Shown here: piece by piece, positions 1 to 39,245 of the stretch
How the letters are laid out: each line of letters begins with the position of its first letter
Numbering within the stretch: the stretch's first letter is position 1
Source: a virus
Taxonomy: Duplodnaviria > Heunggongvirae > Uroviricota > Caudoviricetes
Direction: 5' to 3' (one strand)
DNA length: 39,245 bases
Virus record (IMG/VR): IMGVR_UViG_2558860161_000002
The notes under the pieces: generated by a model
What the model was told of the DNA's origin: nothing
The model's input: only the letters and a program-made list of their open reading frames with translations
Databases searched by the model: none
Program-made: the position numbers and the translations under genes

Positions 1-95
1 AGTCGCTGTCGTTCTCAAAATCGGTGGAGCTGCATGACAAAGTCATCGGGCATTATCTGAACATAAAACACTATCAATAAGTTGGAGTCATTACC
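1..95 (+). mobile_element. IS1 right-end fragment (terminal 95 bp including insB 3' end and the right inverted repeat); the element continues beyond the left window edge
   Basis: 1..95 is the same sequence as 30166..30260, the 3' end of the complete IS1 copy; ends ...caataagttggagtcattacc. Confidence 0.9.
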
Positions 96-308
96 CAGTT
101 TTGTCACAATCAATTGATCACCACATTTCAGGCGAGCAAGCAACCGGTTAAAACCAGGACGCTCACTGGTTGCTGCTGAGCCGCTAATGTGTTCTTCGAT
201 TATTTGCTGAGGTTTGATTTTAAAACCTGCACTTTCGATTTCCCGGCGTTGATTTTCGGTGGTCTGATCCAGCGTTGATATCCGACAGTAAGCAAAAATT
301 CGAGACAT
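96..308 (-). pseudogene. pinQ: Pin-family serine recombinase/DNA invertase, N-terminal fragment (about 71 codons) truncated by IS1
   Basis: ATG at 308; translation [29 protein letters not shown]...GDQLIVTKL with the catalytic Ser motif, then runs straight into IS1 sequence at 95. Confidence 0.85.
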
Positions 309-624
309 AGTGAGACTCTATACGAAATTGGTGTTCATATCATAATGCATCTCAGAAAATAATTTTGATTATTTTTGTGCATATTTTTATGTACACGTTC
401 GAAAATAAACGAATGCGTATGCAACCCCGTAATTTTGGTGAGACCCAAAATCGATTTTGTGAAAAATGGCTTTAACTCGGTTTGTTTTTCGAGTTCCGGG
501 CGGACTCAAGGAAGAAGAATAGTGTTGCGTGTTATTTTAACCAGATTTCAAGTTGTTTGGTCGTGGAAAAGTGGAGCAAAATGTTGTTAAAGTGGAAAAA
601 TGATAAAAAAGTAAGTTTATTATA

Positions 625-858
625 TTACATTTTACCATTTAAATTTTGGTTGTCTTTAAGAACTGATATCGCTGTTTGTAATAATTCTTTGTTATCCAGC
701 CATGATTTTTTCTTTATGTTTCCTTCAATGTAATCAAGCAATGTTCTGGTATTGATAGGTCTTCCCTGTTTTGCTACTTCCACTACAGCATCCCCTAGGA
801 TAATTCTTACTTCAGGAAGCTGCGCAGGGAACCACTTTAGGGTGTCTTTTGATTTCAT
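625..858 (-). CDS. ydfK: small prophage protein, YdfK/YnaE-like (77 aa from the internal Met MKSKDTLKWF...)
   Basis: ORF 625..891; lies between the invertase and ydfJ as remembered for Qin; start chosen by recollection of a 77-aa product. Confidence 0.5.
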   Translation of the reverse strand: MKSKDTLKWFPAQLPEVRIILGDAVVEVAKQGRPINTRTLLDYIEGNIKKKSWLDNKELLQTAISVLKDNQNLNGKM

Positions 859-1644
859 GAAGATATTCCTTAAAATATTATTGATTTTCATTGCGATATT
901 GTATGTCTGATTCAGGATATGTTGACTTATACATCGGTTTTGTCTGGGTTATTGGATATGCCAATCCCTAATTTTATTAGGGCATGACTAAAAATGCTGA
1001 ATATGATAAGGAGAGATGTGATTATCAGTATGCTGTTCATATAGCCTCGAATTAGTAATGTGTTATATATGATATAGTTGACAATTTTTATCTTGGGTGT
1101 TCTTAAAGTTCGTAGATAAACATTGTCGTTTCAGGTATACAGGAATGCTAACAGGTGGCAGCAAAAATCAGGCGGTTTATGGCGCAAGCTGAAGCGGCAA
1201 CTGCAAACTATCTTATGCAGAGACTCTACACGGATTGGGTTTAAAAGTATACATAGATAACAGTTTTTATCTGAAAAATAAAAATATCAAGGTGATATAG
1301 CCTATATGCCTTTGATGCGGAGGAATGAATGTGATGGGAGTGATGTATCTGAATAGTTGAAAAACCGCAGACACGCCTTATGCAAGAACGTGCTGCGGTT
1401 GGCTGGTAAATTTTTCGATAGTGTGAGTATTGAATGATTTCCAGCCGTTCTTGATTTTACGCATAAATCCATGAAAAAACTACTTATCTGTTGGGGAGTT
1501 TTTTTTGGGGCATATATGGGACAGAAATAGGCCCCAGATAGACACTGAGATCGAACTTAGGATGCTTTTTAAAAAATGCAACTATCTGAAAAAACCTAGA
1601 AAACGCCAAGGAAACCACAGGATGGGAAAAAACACCTGTGAATT

Positions 1645-2928
1645 ATGGATTTCCAGTTATATTCGCTCGGCGCAGCGTTAGTGTTTCATGAAATATTTTT
1701 TCCTGAATCATCAACGGCAATGGCGTTAATTCTGGCAATGGGAACCTACGGTGCAGGTCATGTGGCGCGTATTGTCGGAGCATTTATTTTCGGCAAAATG
1801 GGCGACAGAATAGGGCGTAAAAAAGTGCTCTTTATTACCATCACCATGATGGGGATCTGTACCACCTTAATTGGTGTGTTACCGACCTATGCACAGATTG
1901 GTGTTTTTGCCCCCATCTTGCTGGTGACGCTGCGTATTATTCAGGGATTGGGTGCAGGTGCGGAAATTTCCGGTGCCGGTACGATGCTGGCGGAATATGC
2001 GCCAAAAGGTAAGCGCGGAATTATCTCCTCATTTGTGGCTATGGGAACTAACTGCGGAACTTTAAGCGCAACGGCAATCTGGGCCTTTATGTTCTTCATT
2101 CTCAGTAAAGAGGAACTGCTGGCGTGGGGATGGCGTATACCGTTCCTGGCGAGCGTTGTCGTGATGGTCTTTGCTATCTGGTTGCGTATGAATCTGAAAG
2201 AAAGCCCGGTTTTTGAGAAGGTTAACGACAGCAACCAACCGACAGCAAAACCTGCACCTGCTGGTAGCATGTTCCAGAGCAAATCCTTCTGGCTGGCAAC
2301 AGGGCTGCGTTTTGGTCAGGCGGGTAACTCAGGTTTAATTCAGACTTTCCTTGCGGGCTATTTAGTGCAGACGTTATTGTTTAACAAAGCAATTCCAACA
2401 GATGCATTGATGATCAGTTCGATTCTCGGCTTTATGACCATTCCGTTCCTTGGTTGGTTATCCGATAAAATTGGTCGCCGGATCCCGTATATTATTATGA
2501 ATACCTCCGCGATTGTGCTGGCATGGCCAATGCTTTCTATCATCGTAGATAAAAGCTATGCCCCGAGCACCATTATGGTTGCACTGATTGTGATTCATAA
2601 CTGTGCGGTGCTGGGATTATTTGCTCTGGAAAATATTACCATGGCAGAAATGTTCGGCTGTAAAAACCGCTTTACCCGGATGGCTATTTCTAAAGAAATT
2701 GGTGGTCTTATCGCTTCCGGTTTTGGTCCTATCCTGGCGGGTATTTTCTGCACCATGACGGAATCCTGGTATCCGATCGCCATTATGATCATGGCATATT
2801 CAGTGATTGGTTTAATCTCTGCGCTGAAAATGCCAGAAGTGAAAGACCGTGATTTAAGTGCGCTGGAAGACGCCGCGGAAGATCAACCGCGTGTTGTAAG
2901 AGCTGCGCAACCTTCCAGAAGTCTGTAA
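1645..2928 (+). CDS. ydfJ: MFS transporter (metabolite:H+ symporter type), 427 aa, apparently lacking the N-terminal part of helix 1
   Basis: 427-aa ORF with many predicted membrane helices; in-frame TGA 6 nt upstream of the ATG; N-terminus begins inside the conserved first-helix motif. Confidence 0.8.
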   Translation: MDFQLYSLGAALVFHEIFFPESSTAMALILAMGTYGAGHVARIVGAFIFGKMGDRIGRKKVLFITITMMGICTTLIGVLPTYAQIGVFAPILLVTLRIIQGLGAGAEISGAGTMLAEYAPKGKRGIISSFVAMGTNCGTLSATAIWAFMFFILSKEELLAWGWRIPFLASVVVMVFAIWLRMNLKESPVFEKVNDSNQPTAKPAPAGSMFQSKSFWLATGLRFGQAGNSGLIQTFLAGYLVQTLLFNKAIPTDALMISSILGFMTIPFLGWLSDKIGRRIPYIIMNTSAIVLAWPMLSIIVDKSYAPSTIMVALIVIHNCAVLGLFALENITMAEMFGCKNRFTRMAISKEIGGLIASGFGPILAGIFCTMTESWYPIAIMIMAYSVIGLISALKMPEVKDRDLSALEDAAEDQPRVVRAAQPSRSL

Positions 2929-2955
2929 ATCCTCAATCCCGGTAATGACTCCAAC

Positions 2956-3459
2956 TTATTGATAGTGTTTTATGTTCAGATAATGCCCGATGACTTTGTC
3001 ATGCAGCTCCACCGATTTTGAGAACGACAGCGACTTCCGTCCCAGCCGTGCCAGGTGCTGCCTCAGATTCAGGTTATGCCGCTCAATTCGCTGCGTATAT
3101 CGCTTGCTGATTACGTGCAGCTTTCCCTTCAGGCGGGATTCATACAGCGGCCAGCCATCCGTCATCCATATCACCACGTCAAAGGGTGACAGCAGGCTCA
3201 TAAGACGCCCCAGCGTCGCCATAGTGCGTTCACCGAATACGTGCGCAACAACCGTCTTCCGGAGCCTGTCATACGCGTAAAACAGCCAGCGCTGGCGCGA
3301 TTTAGCCCCGACATAGCCCCACTGTTCGTCCATTTCCGCGCAGACGATGACGTCACTGCCCGGCTGTATGCGCGAGGTTACCGACTGCGGCCTGAGTTTT
3401 TTAAGTGACGTAAAATCGTGTTGAGGCCAACGCCCATAATGCGGGCTGTTGCCCGGCAT
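2956..3459 (-). CDS. insB: IS1 InsB reading frame (normally expressed as an InsAB' frameshift fusion)
   Basis: 167-aa ORF overlapping insA 3' end, identical to the insB ORF of the IS1 at 29493..30260. Confidence 0.9.
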
Positions 3460-3653
3460 CCAACGCCATTCATGGCCATATCAATGATTTTCTGGTGCGT
3501 ACCGGGTTGAGAAGCGGTGTAAGTGAACTGCAGTTGCCATGTTTTACGGCAGTGAGAGCAGAGATAGCGCTGATGTCCGGCGGTGCTTTTGCCGTTACGC
3601 ACCACCCCGTCAGTAGCTGAACAGGAGGGACAGCTGATAGAAACAGAAGCCAC
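3378..3653 (-). CDS. insA: IS1 InsA (91 aa)
   Basis: [46 protein letters not shown]... Confidence 0.9.
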
Positions 3654-3708
3654 TGGAGCACCTCAAAAACACCATCATACACTAAATCAGTAAGTTGGTA
3701 GCATCACC

Positions 3709-4094
3709 CAAAACTGGATCGCCTTGGTTGTAATGCAATGGATATCAGGAAAACAGTGGAACAACTGACCGAAACAGGTATCAGAGTGCATTGCTTAGCA
3801 TTGGGGGGCATTGACCTGACCAGTCCAACAGGAAAAATGATGATGCAAGTAATTTCAGCAGTCGCTGAATTTGAACGAGACCTTTTACTTGAACGCACTC
3901 ATTCCGGGATAGTAAGAGCCCGGGGCGCAGGGAAACGTTTTGGTCGACCACCTGTGTTAAATGAAGAACAGAAACAGGTGGTATTCGAACGAATTAAGTC
4001 AGGTGTAAGTATAAGTGCCATTGCCCGGGAATTCAAAACCTCGCGGCAAACCATTTTAAGAGCCAAAGCAAAACTTCAGACACCTGACATATAA
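3709..4094 (+). pseudogene. pinQ: Pin-family DNA invertase, C-terminal fragment (continues the 96..308 fragment, which is on the opposite strand)
   Basis: in-frame translation from the IS1 boundary: (K)[32 protein letters not shown]...KAKLQTPDI; first ATG at 3738. Confidence 0.85.
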
Positions 4095-4191
4095 AAAATA
4101 ATCTCGGTGTGAGATGCTTTACGTCTTCCAAGCCACCTTCCTTGCCGTAAATGGAAAGATACATCTAATTATAGAATTTATATGTTTTACC

Positions 4192-4767
4192 CTACGGCAG
4201 TGCTGGCCATTCAATATCCTGTGCAGTTGACGTATCAACACGGTTCAGCAATACCCGATACTTTTTCCATGCTTCCAGCAACGAGATTTCTTCCTCCGTT
4301 GCAATTTCCAGATCTGCAGCATCCTGAAGCGGCGCAATATGCTCACTGGCTACCTGCATCAGGCTGTTTTTTGTTTCTTCCGCCTCCCGGATCCGGAACA
4401 GTTTTTCTGCTTCCGTATCCTTCACCCAGGCTGTGCCGTTCCACTTCTGATATTCCCCTCCCGGCGATAACCAGGTAACATTTTCCGGTAACGGACCGAG
4501 TTCAGAAATAAATAACGCGTCGCCGGAAGCCACGTCATAAACCGTTTTACCCCGATGATCTTCAACGAGATGCCACGATGCCTCATCACTGTTGAAAACA
4601 GCCACGAAGCCTGCCGGAATATCTGGCGGTGCAATATCGATACTGTTTGCTGGCAGACCTGTATGAGGCGGAATATATGCGTCACCTTCACCAATAAATT
4701 CATTAGTTCCGGCCAGCAGATTATAAATTTTTATGGTCCGTGGTTGTTCACTCATTCTGAATGCCAT
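4192..4767 (-). CDS. tfa: tail fiber assembly protein (lambda Tfa family)
   Basis: 191-aa [37 protein letters not shown]..., near-identical to remembered lambda Tfa; start overlaps stf stop. Confidence 0.9.
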
Positions 4768-7700
4768 TATGCAAGCCTCACAATATAGTTAAATGCGATG
4801 TTTTTGACGGTGTTTTCCGCGTTACCAGCAGCGTTAACGGTGATGGTATGTCCATGTGAACCAATCGCAACGGAGTGCGTATGAGCACCAATACCGACAG
4901 TATGTGCGTGTGCACCTGCGCTTGCAGCAGTACCCGATACAGAGTGCGTATGAGCGCCTGCAGAAGAAGTGTTAACACTGTATTTAGAATAATCAGGTGA
5001 TCCACTTCCCGGAGCACCACTGGAACCACCTGAAACAAATGTCATCGAATGGGTATGTGCACCGGCTGAAGCAGCCGTACCGCTAACACTATGGGTATGC
5101 GCACCAGTGTTATTCGTGGATTTAGTGCCGTAATCAAACGACGATGTGGTTTTCGTCCCCAAATCCGTACTGGATACGCTGGCGCTGTGGGTGTGTGATT
5201 TAATGCCGTCCTGTTCCTGAGACAATACGGCTCGATCACTGGCGGGCTTGCCCTTAATCGTCCAGCCACGCATATCAGGGATCACGCCTGACGGATAAGC
5301 GGCTGCAAGTTTCGGGTAAGCAGATTTGTCAAAAGTCTGCCCCTGCATCAGGGCATAACCAGACGGAACGGTATCTGATGGCCACGGGATTGGTGCACCG
5401 ACTGGATAAAACTCTGCAGGAGGATGAGCCGAGGTGTAAAGCTGCGCCCACGGCGACCAGTTTGCGTCGGTCGTATCCCGTCGTGAACGAATAAATGCCG
5501 GAGCATGAGCACCGCTTGTACCACTCCAGCCGATGAGTAACTCACCTTCGCCAACGGCTGTCATCCCTTTCAGGTGAATGATATTTCCATACGCTGTTGG
5601 ATATCCGTTGTTATACACCTCGTATAACTCAAGACCTGTTGCCCCCTGCGTATTGTCTGTCAGCGCGGTTACCCGACCTTTTGAAGACAGATTAACTGAT
5701 GATACTGCTGTTCCACCTGACGGTAACGCCCCGATCTCTGATGCCGTTGGCTTATTTCTGGAGTTATAGTCCCTTCGCCAGCCAGGTGAATAATCTGTTC
5801 CGTGATTAATATAGGTAAACTGGGCGTTAGTTGTTCCACCACCAGTGGAGGTGGTCGGTGTGGTAATGCGGATCGTCATCGCTGACTTTATCCCCATTAC
5901 TTCAATGACAGCTCCGGCGAGATGAATATTACCGCAGCCAGTATCAGTAATGATTTTATTATTGCCATAAGACCAGGAACCCTTGCACATCCAGTATGGA
6001 TGGTTAAATGCTCCCTGAGAATCCAGCCACTCGATAAACTGTGCAGTCGTCCAGTTTCCTGTTGTTGTGCTTACTGACCCACCGAAGGCACGGCAGGCAC
6101 CAATATTTTTCGTAAAGGTGTCTTTGCCAGGGATATCCGCACCGTTCTGATCTTTCTGCAGACGTTTCTCAGCATTGTCATTGGCTGCTTTTACTGCCTT
6201 TGGCGTTGCCGCCAGCGTTTCAGACGTGCTGTTGGTCGCGCTGCTTAGCTGGATTATCCCTTTCTGTGCTGTCGTTGCATCCTGTGCGGTGTATTTCCCG
6301 TTAGCCAGGTCATACGCGGCCTTAACGGCTTTTGGCGTTGCCGCCAGTGACTCGGAAGTGCTGTTGGTCGCACTGCTGAGCTGTACTATCCCCTTTTTCG
6401 TCGTGCTCGCATCCTCAAGCGCCACGACGGATGCAATATCCTCTGCCCGTTTTGCCGCTGTCTCAGCGCGCGTTGCTGCAGATTCCGCCGTACTTTTGCT
6501 CTGAGCTGCTGCCGTCGCACTGCCAGCTGCCTCTGTCGCCTTCGTGGATGCCGTCGTGGCGCTACCCTTCGCTGCTGACGCCTGTCTGGTCGCCTCATCT
6601 TTTGAAGCAGACGCAGATGATGCCGATGACGACGCCGAACTGGCTGACGATGCGGCAGCCGTTTTTGAGGATTCTGCGCTGGTTTCCGACGCTTTCGCGT
6701 TCGTTTCGGATGTCTTCGCTGCGGAAGCAGACCTCGCTGCTGCGCTGGCCTGTTCAGTGGCTTCGCCAGCCTTCGTTGTGGCTGTTGAAGCAGACGATGC
6801 GGCGCTTTCTGCCGATTTTCCGGCGGCGGTGGCACTGGCTGAGGCCTGCCCGGCACTTGTTGACGCTGCACTGGCAGACGACGCAGCCGCTGTTTTTGAG
6901 CCTGCCGCAGCCGAGGCGCTCTGTCCCGCTGCCGTTTCAGAAGACCTGGCGTTCGTCTCTGACGTTTTTGCCGCCTTCGCGGAATTTCCTGCCGCTGTTG
7001 CCGAGGAAGCTGCGCTACTGGCGCTCGAGGATGCGTTCGTTTCTGATGATTTTGCCGCCTCTTTTGAAGCCGCCGCATCCCGGGCTGAGGTGGCAGCTTC
7101 TGACGCTTTCGTAGTCGCGGTGGATGCAGAAGTGGCTGCTGATTGTTGTGACGCTGCAGCATTCGTTTCTGACGTTTTCGCGGCACTGGCACTGGTAGCT
7201 GCCGCGCTTTTTGAGGACTCTGCAGCGGCAGCACTTTTTGATGCTTCAGTGGCCTTTGTTGATGCCGTTCCTGCGCTGGAAGTCGCTGACTGAGCCGACG
7301 ACGCGGCCTGTCCGGCTGACGTGCTGGCTGCGCGTGCTGAGCCTGCAGCATCAGTCGCATGGGTTGCCGCCTCACGGGCTGATGTGCTGGCATCACTGGC
7401 TGACTTCTTCGCGGCTGCCGTGTTCTGTGCCACCACGGACGCGTTACGCGCCACCTCTTCCACCATCAGCTCAAAACGGCGCAGTGCCTCCGGACGGGCA
7501 TCATCCTCCGTCATGGCACCGAGAAAATCATTCAGCGTACCGGGTCGGGAATCTTCATACACTGTGATGGTCCCGGCATGTGACGGCGGGAATCCTTCCA
7601 CCAACAGAATAACGCTGTACTGACCGTACTCAACGTCCATACTGTAACGCCCGGCTTCATCCGGATTTTCAGATGCCAGCGTGTTCACCACCACCGTGGT

Positions 7701-7796
7701 ACTGTTACGTTTTGCTTTCAGCTGGATTGTGCAGTTCTGTACCGGTTTTCCTGTGCCGTCTTTCAGTACACCTGAAATTTTTACTGCCATATTCAC
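4767..7796 (-). CDS. stf: side tail fiber protein (lambda Stf family), 1009 aa with a long Ala/Ser/Thr-rich tract and a C-terminal His-box region
   Basis: N-terminus M(NM)[25 protein letters not shown]; C-terminus with repeated GAHTHS/GAHAHT motifs ending [14 protein letters not shown]. Confidence 0.9.
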
Positions 7797-7800
7797 CCCA

Positions 7801-7828
7801 CAAAAAAGCCCGCCTGAACCGGCGGGCT
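7801..7828 (-). terminator. rho-independent terminator-like hairpin downstream of lom
   Basis: agcccgcc-tgaacc-ggcgggct stem-loop preceded by an A-run on the plus strand (T-run on the minus strand). Confidence 0.5.
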
Positions 7829-7854
7829 GTCATAACACTGTGTTACCTGGCTAA

Positions 7855-8454
7855 TCAGAATTTATAACCAACACCCACGATGAACCCGTCAGTGCGCCAG
7901 TCACCACTGCCGGAGCCTTCATAAGCGACATCAATGGCCACGGATTCGGTCGGGTTAAACTGCACGCCAGCTCCCCACGCCAGAGACGTGTTGCTGTGGC
8001 GACCGTCATCACTTCCGGTCAGCACATCGTGCTTTTTCCCCTTGTTGTCAGTTACGCGGAGATAATCCCCGGAGAAAGTCGACACACGGCTGTAAGCCAC
8101 ACCCGCCATCGCATACGCGCTGAACCATTCATTCACGCGCACAGACGGCCCCGCCATTACGCTGAACCAGCGGTTACGAACGGAATCTTCATGCCAGCGG
8201 GTATCGCTGGAACGGGTAATCTGGCGATTCTTGTCTCCTGCATAGCTGAACGACGTCACCATCCCCAGTGTGTCCGTAAACTCATAACGGTATTTCACGT
8301 TAATCCCGTTCAGATCATCACTGCCGGGAACGTTCGTCCGGGCATGAAGATACCCCGCGCTCAGCGTGGACTGATGTTCAGACGCCCATGCAGGCGCACC
8401 GGATACGGCCAGACAAATGGCTGCGGACAAAATGGCGGCATAAAGTTTACGCAT
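7855..8454 (-). CDS. lom: Lom outer-membrane protein (Ail/Lom/OmpX beta-barrel family)
   Basis: 199-aa ORF with signal peptide [24 protein letters not shown] and C-terminal ...GVGYKF. Confidence 0.9.
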
Positions 8455-8520
8455 AATTACCTCTCGCTTTTCTGCAATAAAAAAGGCGTCATTTCTGACG
8501 CCCGTTCTGGGTTATAAAAT

Positions 8521-11922
<3,402 letters not shown>

Positions 11923-11979
11923 TCACGCTCCATAAACGACAAAACCGCCCGCAGGCGGTTTCACATAAAACATTTTGCA

Positions 11980-12651
11980 TCAGCGACCAATCACCACAAC
12001 CTGACCACCGTCCCCTTCGTCTGCCGTGCTGATCTCCTGAGAAACCACGCGTGACCCCACGCGCATTTCACCGTACAGAACCGGCAGAACATTGCCCTGG
12101 GCAACCATGTTATCCAGTGAGGAGAAATAGGTGTTCTGTTTGCCGTTATCCGTTGTCTGTGTACGGGGAGTTCTGGCTTTCGGTGCCAGCATCTGCGCCA
12201 CACCACCGAGCACCATACTGGCACCGAGAGAAAACAGGATGCCGGTCATACCACCGGCCCCAATGGCTGCCCCCCATGCTGCAAGGGTGGCTCCGGCGGT
12301 AAAGAATGATCCGGCAATGGCGGCAGCCCCCAGGACAATCTGGAATACGCCACCTGACTTGGCCCCGGCGACTCTGGGAACAATATGAATCACAGCGCCA
12401 TCAGGCAGAGTCTCATGTAACTGCGCCGTTAACCCGGACGTGCTGACGTCCCGCCCGGCAATCCGTACCTGATACCAGCCGTCGCTCAGTTTCTGACGAA
12501 ACGCCGGGAGCTGTGTGGCCAGTGCCCGGATGGCTTCAGCCCCCGTTTTCACACGAAGGTCGATGCGGCGACCAAATCGTTGTAAATCCCCGTAAAGGCA
12601 GATGCGCGCCATGCCCGGTGACGCCAGAGGGAGTGTGTGCGTCGCTGCCAT
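11980..12651 (-). CDS. I: tail assembly protein I
   Basis: 223-aa ORF MAATHTLPLASPGMARICLYGDLQRFG... Confidence 0.9.
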   Translation of the reverse strand: MAATHTLPLASPGMARICLYGDLQRFGRRIDLRVKTGAEAIRALATQLPAFRQKLSDGWYQVRIAGRDVSTSGLTAQLHETLPDGAVIHIVPRVAGAKSGGVFQIVLGAAAIAGSFFTAGATLAAWGAAIGAGGMTGILFSLGASMVLGGVAQMLAPKARTPRTQTTDNGKQNTYFSSLDNMVAQGNVLPVLYGEMRVGSRVVSQEISTADEGDGGQVVVIGR

Positions 12652-13292
12652 TTGTCGGTGTACCTCTCTCGTTTGCTCAGTTGTTCAGGAATATGGTGCA
12701 GCAGCTCGCCGTCGCCGCAGTAAATTGCGGCGTGATTCGGCACCGATGAACCAAAACAGCACAGCAGCACATCGCCCGGCTGTGCCGCTGACAACGGCAC
12801 CTGATACAGCCCCGTCGCCTCCAGATTATCCAGATAGAGATTCTGGCCGTTACGCCACCAGTCATCCTCACGATGAAAGTCCGGCATCTCAATCCCCGCC
12901 AGATGATAAGCATCCCGGAACAGTGTGTAACAGTCCGTCACACCGTGCTCAAAGCGCCGCCCGGTGAGATGCGGCACACAGCGGAACTTATGAATCGTCC
13001 CCCGGCAGACCAGCCACCACGGCAAATCACTCTGCACCTGCAGCCGCCGGTCGGCCTCACTCAGCCAGGGCAGACCACCGGGGTGGCTGTGGACCAGCGC
13101 CACAATCTCACCCTGCATTTCTGCCTGCAGCCAGTCTTCCGGCGACATACGGAAATACGCCTCCGGCTCACCGGAGATATTCACGCAGGGGAAATATCTT
13201 TCCCCCTCCGGCGTGCTTACCACGAAGCCGCACGACTCCGCTGGCGCACATCGCCGGGCGTGCGCCAGAATCGCTGATTCTGTCTGTGTCAT
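12549..13292 (-). CDS. K: tail assembly protein K (MPN/JAMM-like plus NlpC/P60-like); open frame starts at 13292, lambda-annotated start corresponds to the internal Met at about 13148
   Basis: ORF MTQTESAILAHARRC...HSHPGG...; overlaps gene I by 103 bp. Confidence 0.85.
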   Translation of the reverse strand: MTQTESAILAHARRCAPAESCGFVVSTPEGERYFPCVNISGEPEAYFRMSPEDWLQAEMQGEIVALVHSHPGGLPWLSEADRRLQVQSDLPWWLVCRGTIHKFRCVPHLTGRRFEHGVTDCYTLFRDAYHLAGIEMPDFHREDDWWRNGQNLYLDNLEATGLYQVPLSAAQPGDVLLCCFGSSVPNHAAIYCGDGELLHHIPEQLSKRERYTDKWQRRTHSLWRHRAWRASAFTGIYNDLVAASTFV

Positions 13293-13297
13293 GGGAT

Positions 13298-13996
13298 TTA
13301 CTGCGAAAGTTTGTTAATGGAAAGGAAGCCGCCAAAGTTGCCGACGTTATTGCGGAACTTACAACCGCTCAGGCATTTGCTGCATTTATCCTTCGTGATA
13401 TCGGACGTTGGCTGGTCATATTCATCCGCGACAGCCGGACCGCTATAACCGCACTCGTCACCGCGATAGGTCCAGGTGCAGGTGTTGGCCAGCATGATAC
13501 GTCCCGGAAAAACAGCGCCATCCGTTTCCGTCGGCGTGGACAGTACAAAAGAGGCACTCACCGCGCTCAGTTCGCTGCACTGCTCAATGCGCCAGCGGCT
13601 GATCACCTCCTGCTCCGGATCGGCGCCACTGTTTCCGTTGACGAAGTTCACCGCATCCAGAAAACGGGCGTAAACCTTACGCCGGACCACCGTTCCACCG
13701 ACCAGACTCTGCAGATCTTCCGCCATCCCGGTGACCATACCGTACAGGTTAGAAACCGTCAGTGTGGGGCGCGTACTGGTGCCTTTGCCATTCAGTTCAA
13801 AACCACTCCCCTGAATGGGATACGGCTGATACTGTCGCCCCTGCCAGGTGACCGGCTCACCTTTTTCGTTCTGCTCATTACAGAAAAAATAACGTTCTCC
13901 ACCGACCTCTGTCAGGTCGATTTCCCAGAGCACCACGCTGGCCGACTGCTCCGCACGGGTGCATTCATTCAGTGTTTCCTGCCGGATATCCTGCAT
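13298..13996 (-). CDS. L: minor tail protein L
   Basis: 232-aa ORF MQDIRQETLNECTRAEQSASVVLWEIDLTEVGGERYFFCNEQ... Confidence 0.95.
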   Translation of the reverse strand: MQDIRQETLNECTRAEQSASVVLWEIDLTEVGGERYFFCNEQNEKGEPVTWQGRQYQPYPIQGSGFELNGKGTSTRPTLTVSNLYGMVTGMAEDLQSLVGGTVVRRKVYARFLDAVNFVNGNSGADPEQEVISRWRIEQCSELSAVSASFVLSTPTETDGAVFPGRIMLANTCTWTYRGDECGYSGPAVADEYDQPTSDITKDKCSKCLSGCKFRNNVGNFGGFLSINKLSQ

Positions 13997-23022: not shown

Positions 23023-26704
<3,682 letters not shown>

Positions 26705-29492: not shown

Positions 29493-29547
29493 GGTGATGC
29501 TGCCAACTTACTGATTTAGTGTATGATGGTGTTTTTGAGGTGCTCCA

Positions 29548-29823
29548 GTGGCTTCTGTTTCTATCAGCTGTCCCTCCTGTTCAGCTACTGACGGGGTGGT
29601 GCGTAACGGCAAAAGCACCGCCGGACATCAGCGCTATCTCTGCTCTCACTGCCGTAAAACATGGCAACTGCAGTTCACTTACACCGCTTCTCAACCCGGT
29701 ACGCACCAGAAAATCATTGATATGGCCATGAATGGCGTTGGATGCCGGGCAACAGCCCGCATTATGGGCGTTGGCCTCAACACGATTTTACGTCACTTAA
29801 AAAACTCAGGCCGCAGTCGGTAA
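29548..29823 (+). CDS. insA: IS1 InsA
   Basis: 91-aa ORF identical to the insA of the IS1 at 2941..3708. Confidence 0.9.
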
Positions 29824-30245
29824 CCTCGCGCATACAGCCGGGCAGTGACGTCATCGTCTGCGCGGAAATGGACGAACAGTGGGGCTATGTCGGGGCTAAA
29901 TCGCGCCAGCGCTGGCTGTTTTACGCGTATGACAGGCTCCGGAAGACGGTTGTTGCGCACGTATTCGGTGAACGCACTATGGCGACGCTGGGGCGTCTTA
30001 TGAGCCTGCTGTCACCCTTTGACGTGGTGATATGGATGACGGATGGCTGGCCGCTGTATGAATCCCGCCTGAAGGGAAAGCTGCACGTAATCAGCAAGCG
30101 ATATACGCAGCGAATTGAGCGGCATAACCTGAATCTGAGGCAGCACCTGGCACGGCTGGGACGGAAGTCGCTGTCGTTCTCAAAATCGGTGGAGCTGCAT
30201 GACAAAGTCATCGGGCATTATCTGAACATAAAACACTATCAATAA
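29742..30245 (+). CDS. insB: IS1 InsB reading frame
   Basis: 167-aa ORF identical to the insB of the IS1 at 2941..3708. Confidence 0.9.
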
Positions 30246-30260
30246 GTTGGAGTCATTACC

Positions 30261-38938: not shown

Positions 38939-39245
<307 letters not shown>

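Follow-up and report, generated by a model that had tools for sequence, protein, structure and literature searches.

The 39,245-nucleotide stretch of viral DNA recorded as IMGVR_UViG_2558860161_000002 in IMG/VR (hereafter the window) carries the remains of the Escherichia coli transporter gene ydfJ next to prophage sequence. The 11-bp sequence TTATGGATTTC at positions 1643-1653 is, with a probability of about 95%, the attR-type (P-O-B') junction of a lambdoid prophage of the Qin/mEp460 type in ydfJ, i.e. the junction distal to the integrase gene (int). The arm to the left of this core is of phage origin, and the open reading frame (ORF) that starts within the core corresponds to ydfJ without its first 28 codons (ydfJ'). 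An integration junction inside a transporter gene had been proposed in an initial annotation made from the sequence alone, and the proposal is borne out by comparison of the attachment sites with the junction and by matches to free phages. This is the documented Qin attachment site, and as such already known and ordinary. The only locally new element is an inversion of the segment that contains the junction, bounded by copies of IS1. Coordinates of the features are collected in Table 1.

Attachment core and reciprocal junctions

Four sequences were compared: the empty bacterial site (attB, GCGCTTGAATTTATGGATTTCCAGTTAT), the junction in the window (CACCTGTGAATTATGGATTTCCAGTTAT), the junction on the ynfP side of the Qin prophage in E. 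coli K-12 (GCGCTTGAATTTATGGATTTCAAGAGTCATGCG), and the phage attachment site (attP) of the free phage HannyBb (CACCTGTGAATTATGGATTTCAAGAGTCATGCG). The core TTATGGATTTC is common to all four, and the arms on its two sides are swapped reciprocally, the int-side junction of the comparison being that of K-12 and not of the genome from which the window comes. The core spans codons 28-31 of ydfJ, and a second copy was not found elsewhere in the window. Its last base, 1653, corresponds to the annotated boundary of Qin in K-12 (1632277).

The free phages mEp460_ev081, PhiR42_1, HannyBb and Tritos are 98-99.7% identical to the window at positions 900-1653, and each of these matches stops at 1653. Use of the free-phage attP sequences pinned the crossover to the 11-bp core. 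On the other side of the core, HannyBb encodes a 431-aa integrase with the domains Arm-DNA-bind_2 (PF12167) and Phage_integrase (PF00589), and a DUF1233 excisionase; the same pair of genes is present at the far end of full-length relatives of this prophage. An uninterrupted attB, a core common to the sites compared, an arm contiguous with phage DNA and, in HannyBb, integrase and excisionase genes adjoining attP were thus all found, as characteristic of a site-specific attachment junction.

It is likely that a phage tyrosine integrase recombined attP with the matching 11-bp TTATGGATTTC in codons 28-31 of ydfJ, an event that the integrase itself would have catalysed. The DNA to the left of the core is that of the phage, with pinQ, ydfK, ynfT, the hairpin module described below and the attP arm, and the DNA to the right is host ydfJ from codon 29.

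Intact ydfJ and the truncated form

In E. coli CPF6, an uninterrupted ydfJ, encoding 455 aa, is situated between rspB, 57 bp upstream of it, and ydfI on its downstream side. The 427-aa ORF of the window, which runs on the plus strand from the ATG at 1645 to 2928, corresponds to residues 29-455 of the CPF6 protein with Y67H as the sole substitution (window 1843-1845, intact numbering); residue 67 in K-12 YdfJ is Y. The true 5' end of the gene is therefore missing, as had been claimed in the initial annotation. A homologue with its N-terminus at the start of this ORF was sought as a refutation of that claim, and the uninterrupted homologue proved to have 455 aa, not 427.

The frequency of the empty site was assessed using the two K-12 halves joined into a 330-bp composite, which had to be matched in one piece, in 5426 complete E. 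coli genomes. The uninterrupted junction is present in 2009 of these; hence ydfJ is whole in approximately 37% of complete E. coli genomes. In most of the remaining genomes the two halves of the composite match at separate places, and the ydfK-ynfT-junction-ydfJ' arrangement of the type seen in the window was found in 1986 genomes.

The lost residues 1-28 (MTIEKHERSTKDLVKAAVSGWLGTALEF) include the first half of the MHS motif G-x3-E-[FW]-x-D-F in helix 1. Across the point of truncation the intact protein reads GTALEF/MDFQLYS, the slash preceding M29, with which ydfJ' starts; the complete N-terminus with this motif is accordingly lacking in ydfJ', and the ORF begins inside a conserved N-terminal motif as noted earlier. 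With the NCBIfam profiles TIGR00883, ShiA and ProP, the match of the truncated form starts at model positions 7, 37 and 40, as compared with positions 1, 12 and 22 for the intact form, respectively. Positions 1-6 of TIGR00883 are thus lost, and the matches to ProP and ShiA are shortened by 18-25 further positions.

The phage arm fails to restore ydfJ. The codons up to the start of ydfJ' are CTG TGA ATT ATG, in agreement with the in-frame TGA reported upstream of the ORF in the initial annotation. The first base of the TGA lies 6 nt 5' of the A of the ATG, and this stop codon, three bases before the internal Met codon, gives rise to the apparent 427-aa ORF.

The plus strand at 877-1644 showed no sigma-70-like site, nor was a motif resembling a Shine-Dalgarno sequence found within 24 nt of the ATG at 1645. 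The truncated gene is separated from rspAB, whereas the intact gene is contiguous with the rspAB side. A sequence search of the PDB at E<=1e-10 gave no structural template for helix 1, and Kyte-Doolittle hydropathy did not delimit the amphipathic helix 1 of YdfJ. Having neither the promoter of the rspAB side nor a Shine-Dalgarno sequence nor the first 28 residues, ydfJ' is, as judged from the sequence, most likely an inactive remnant.

It has also to be considered that ydfJ' could be expressed from a phage-borne or read-through promoter via the internal Met as a shortened working transporter, or that the prophage could serve as a reversible switch of the rspAB-ydfJ-ydfI cluster. The frame is still open and differs from the intact allele by a single substitution, the junction is found in a great many genomes, and the profile score is above the cut-off, all of which would suit a working protein. 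However, promoter-like and Shine-Dalgarno-like sequences were not found upstream, the N-terminal half of the conserved helix-1 motif is gone, and an open frame is expected if integration was recent or ydfJ' is simply young. As to a switch, the junction in the window is inverted (see below) and in that state would not take part in excision. Expression as a working transporter or a switching role is thus very unlikely, and the 427-aa 'YdfJ' is best treated in annotation as a prophage-truncated remnant of the 455-aa form.

Several points weigh against a prophage junction with a dead gene remnant beside it. The integrase, the excisionase and the other junction of this prophage are not within the window, and strand exchange is placed no more finely than to the 11 bp. 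The nearest complete relative, 1008S19, has lost int, ynfP and the 3' part of rspB to an IS1 deletion (7434-8641 of locus L012). The TIGR00883 score of ydfJ' is 451.3 bits, above the cut-off of 443.45 (the intact form scores 462.9), the K-12 RefSeq annotation carries the 427-aa YdfJ (b1543) as an ordinary coding sequence, and ydfJ' may, by its sequence, retain some residual expression or function.

The RefSeq entry and the score above the cut-off would also favour the opposite view, namely that the 427-aa ORF represents the complete native gene, that the AT-rich 750 bp upstream is its own regulatory region, and that no integration took place. Against this stand the 455-aa allele contiguous with rspB in the 2009 genomes with an empty site, the presence of the upstream 750 bp in free phage genomes, the label 'missing N-terminus' given to the 427-aa form in relatives by the NCBI Prokaryotic Genome Annotation Pipeline (PGAP), and the extension of the ProP and ShiA matches by 18-25 positions towards the N-terminus in the intact form. 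A native full-length ORF has next to no probability, as the intact allele and the comparison of attP, attB, attL and attR both refute it.

The initial annotation further placed the other half of the gene beyond the far end of the prophage. This holds for the lineage: in K-12 the missing 5' part is ynfP (b4534, 36 aa), located at the far end of Qin and adjoining intQ and rspB. In 1008S19, however, it is deleted, and neither the missing 5' piece of ydfJ nor ynfP sequence was found in the window. Because the far end was removed by IS1 in the closest complete relative, the other half of ydfJ may be absent from the present genome as well. Deletions adjoining IS1 and related to that of 1008S19 were observed in three other loci (L006, L007 and L009).

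IS1 copies and the inverted segment

The truncated ydfJ is flanked by prophage DNA on both sides because the junction is part of an inverted segment with IS1 at its ends. The segment at 96-2940 (2.85 kb), comprising the 5' fragment of pinQ, ydfK, ynfT, the junction and ydfJ', is inverted between inverted copies of IS1 (10214-13737 of locus L008, which is identical to the window). The breakpoints are at 95/96 and 2940/2941, the latter at the 3' side of ydfJ'. Inverted IS1 is present at both of them, and the target duplications CTCAATCCC and CAAAACTG are inverted as expected for an IS1-mediated inversion. Particularly, the 8-bp duplication of pinQ, CAAAACTG, occurs at 96-103 as the reverse complement and at 3709-3716, and a second copy of CTCAATCCC abuts the other IS1 next to ydfI (L008 13729-13737). 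In L008, ydfI is located beyond the left IS1. The ancestor state, with a single IS1 in the same position in pinQ and no inversion, is represented by locus L006.

The left IS1 is incompletely assembled and includes a gap of N and an IS3-family element. The window, which matches part of scaffold KE137120.1 (GCA_000408465.1) at 100% identity, starts directly after an assembly gap of 1885 N inside this IS1, and L008 has a run of N just beyond. It is a contig with a repeat at either end, an IS5-like element being on the right. The exact ydfJ/IS1 junction as a single match was found in none of the 5426 complete E. coli genomes.

After integration, an IS1 already present in pinQ gave rise to a second, inverted IS1 copy in the ydfJ-ydfI spacer, and the 2.85 kb between the two were flipped. 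The data fit both a one-step intramolecular replicative transposition and a further insertion with subsequent homologous recombination.

The proximity of IS1 raises the question whether the 5' truncation of ydfJ itself could be due to a deletion or inversion by IS1 and not to site-specific recombination of a phage. The window has at least three copies of IS1 and one of IS5, the inversion takes in ydfJ', and IS1 deletions are common in this prophage lineage. However, no IS end is located at 1643-1653, both breakpoints of the inversion being elsewhere; the same 5' breakpoint is found in K-12 and in approximately 1986 other genomes without the inversion; and the junction is the exact product of attP and attB. 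An IS1 origin of the 5' end is extremely unlikely and is already refuted by these data, and IS1 explains only the 3' neighbourhood and the orientation of ydfJ'. The 5' end of ydfJ' is hence assigned to phage integration.

As a result of the inversion, the junction is now reversed with respect to the remaining prophage, and in this orientation it would no longer be able to take part in excision. If the int-side junction persists, integrase and excisionase would flip the prophage of approximately 40 kb rather than excise it, so that the inversion would act as an IS-made lock grounding a nearly complete prophage, and ydfJ', the junction, ynfT and ydfK would form a mobile unit resembling an IS1 composite transposon; this extension is speculative and rather improbable. 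For programs that call prophage boundaries the locus calls for caution, as a rule by which the first host gene marks the boundary would misplace the prophage end here.

The insertion of IS1 also splits pinQ, and the invertase for the stf/tfa tail-fibre segment is inactivated (3709-7796). The orientation of the tail-fibre segment is presumably frozen.

Phage arm, remaining prophage and comparison with known systems

The stretch between the end of the ydfK ORF at 891 and the start of ydfJ' (892-1644, 753 bp) has a GC content of 0.373, as compared with 0.47 for ydfJ and 0.513 for the entire window. The longest ORF located fully within it has 56 aa, and a 58-aa ORF on the plus strand (1505-1681) crosses from it into ydfJ. 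When the sequence was shuffled, 585 of 1000 shuffles likewise had no ORF of >=60 aa; hence the stretch behaves simply as non-coding DNA. The earlier description, approximately 750 bp of AT-rich sequence in which no ORF reaches 60 codons, is thus correct in its figures, but the lack of such ORFs is at chance level and the stretch is not empty, as it carries ynfT, the hairpin module and the attP arm. The small gene ynfT is annotated in K-12 and in many further genomes. Paper searches gave nothing usable on ynfT or on the small RNA CssrB discussed below.

Table 1. Features identified in the window, with their positions, strand and the data on which each is based.
Feature	Position	Strand	Basis or remark
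Inner end of an IS1 copy (right inverted repeat, IRR)	1-95		Reverse complement of 2941-3035
pinQ 5' fragment, DNA invertase residues 1-71, fused to IS1 sequence	96-308	-	Pfam Resolvase profile 1-72
ydfK, prophage cold-shock gene, 77 aa as annotated	625-858	-	K-12 and 1008S19 annotation at the collinear position; PF27475 YnaE on the called gene
ynfT, gene for a 37-aa small protein	927-1040	-	NF041477 YnaM/YnfT, E=1.2e-17, 63.9 bits (cut-off 35); K-12 b4748
Non-coding phage DNA: end of b region and int-distal (P-type) attP arm	1041-1642		Free-phage matches of 98-99.7%
Strong hairpin (1365-1398) followed by U5 (1364-1360)	1360-1398	-	Minimum free energy structure; conserved in HK97 and 210 phage records
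Second conserved hairpin, GGCTGG...CCAGCC	1401-1446	-	Same double-hairpin module
TTGGGGCAT, candidate arm-type integrase site	1505-1513	+	Repeat enumeration in attP
TGA closing the ydfJ frame	1639-1641	+	Supplied by the phage arm
Attachment core (crossover region), 11 bp, TTATGGATTTC	1643-1653		Four-way att comparison; end of phage matches
ydfJ', codons 29-455 of a gene for an MHS-family MFS transporter	1645-2928	+	Promoter, ribosome-binding site and 28 N-terminal codons lost
IS1 target duplication CTCAATCCC, 9 bp, from the ydfJ-ydfI spacer	2932-2940		Sequence read
Complete IS1, 768 bp, insA/insB	2941-3708	-	Inverted relative to the copy at 1-95
pinQ 3' fragment	3709-4094	+	Pfam Resolvase profile 81-144 and HTH_7
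Remainder of the Qin-type lambdoid prophage: tfa, stf, lom, J, tail, head, terminase, lysis, Q, relBE, flxA to ydfW	4192-38939		99.95% collinear with the 1008S19 prophage
Further IS1, 768 bp, in the cold-shock gene cspI	29493-30260		K-12 collinear on both sides, 10-bp alignment overlap at the insertion
Terminal 306 bp of an IS5-like element near ydfW	38940-39245		Right end of the window

In the attP of HannyBb, the non-coding arm at 1041-1642 continues into the int-side arm. It includes a double-hairpin module at approximately 1362-1467, in a 221-nt region that folds with z=-4.9; the module was found in 210 phage records, including HK97, lambda and Stx phages, and is unannotated in the records listed. 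At the module the minus strand would be the strand of the integrase transcripts after they cross attP in the circular phage. The hairpin that precedes the U-run is probably an intrinsic terminator for transcripts crossing attP from the int side, and the module as a whole may best be regarded as a leftward terminator-like element that is conserved in lambdoid b regions.

Identity of the module with the sib/tI retroregulator of lambda was considered and rejected. The sib hairpin of lambda and HK97 (ATTAGCGCAAG...CTTGCGCTAAT) is absent here; the block homologous to the module adjoins the annotated sib of HK97 with an overlap of only 7 bp; and the lambda copy of the module (24162-24256) belongs to the b region, where it lies between ea47 and ea31 at a distance of 3.5 kb from sib. 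The Rfam family CssrB (RF02799) matched 1260-1397 of the plus strand with 24.4 bits, as compared with a gathering threshold of 76, and was likewise rejected. The alignment takes in only the 3' hairpin and suggests a paralogous prophage b region as the origin of CssrB.

The motif TTGGGGCA is present as a single copy in the int-distal arm and as a tandem pair in the int-side arm of the free-phage attP (L004 3312-3331). It resembles arm-type integrase sites and is a candidate for one, a lead only, the family of TTGGGGCA repeats in attP being no larger than in shuffled sequences.

The junction agrees with published accounts of Qin. According to one report, Qin is integrated at the 5' end of ydfJ with the loss of the promoter and 28 N-terminal codons (PMC6379469). 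The gene is listed as the site of Qin in strains W, K-12, B and Crooks (PMC3032704), and a lambda-like prophage lies between ydfJ and rspB in SE11 (PMC2608844).

Qin of K-12 (1632277-1652745; ydfJ, b1543; ynfP, b4534) and the prophage in the window share the host gene, the 11-bp core, the boundary base and the left-arm genes ynfT, ydfK, pinQ and tfaQ, with 99% identity over window positions 95-2940. They differ in the terminase, head and tail genes (approximately 21 kb, 5672-26721), which are kept in the window and lost in K-12, where the alignment jumps from 5671 to 26722. The window further differs by the additional IS1 copies in pinQ and cspI, the IS5 near ydfW and the IS1-bounded inversion. 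The free phages mEp460_ev081, PhiR42_1, HannyBb and Tritos have the same core followed by the arm that is found on the ynfP side in K-12, int and xis, their attP being uninterrupted, whereas in the window host ydfJ comes directly after the core.

The layout is also that of attP and attR of lambda with sib/tI: int is directed toward the core, and approximately 250 nt past the core, in the int-distal arm, there is a hairpin with a U-run on the int-sense strand. In contrast to lambda and HK97, however, the arm in the window shows no sequence similarity to the sib-tI hairpin and has the b-region module instead. Finally, the rearrangement corresponds to an IS1-mediated adjacent inversion, the inverted pair of IS1 copies, the inverted 9-bp duplication CTCAATCCC and the single-IS1 ancestor all being present.

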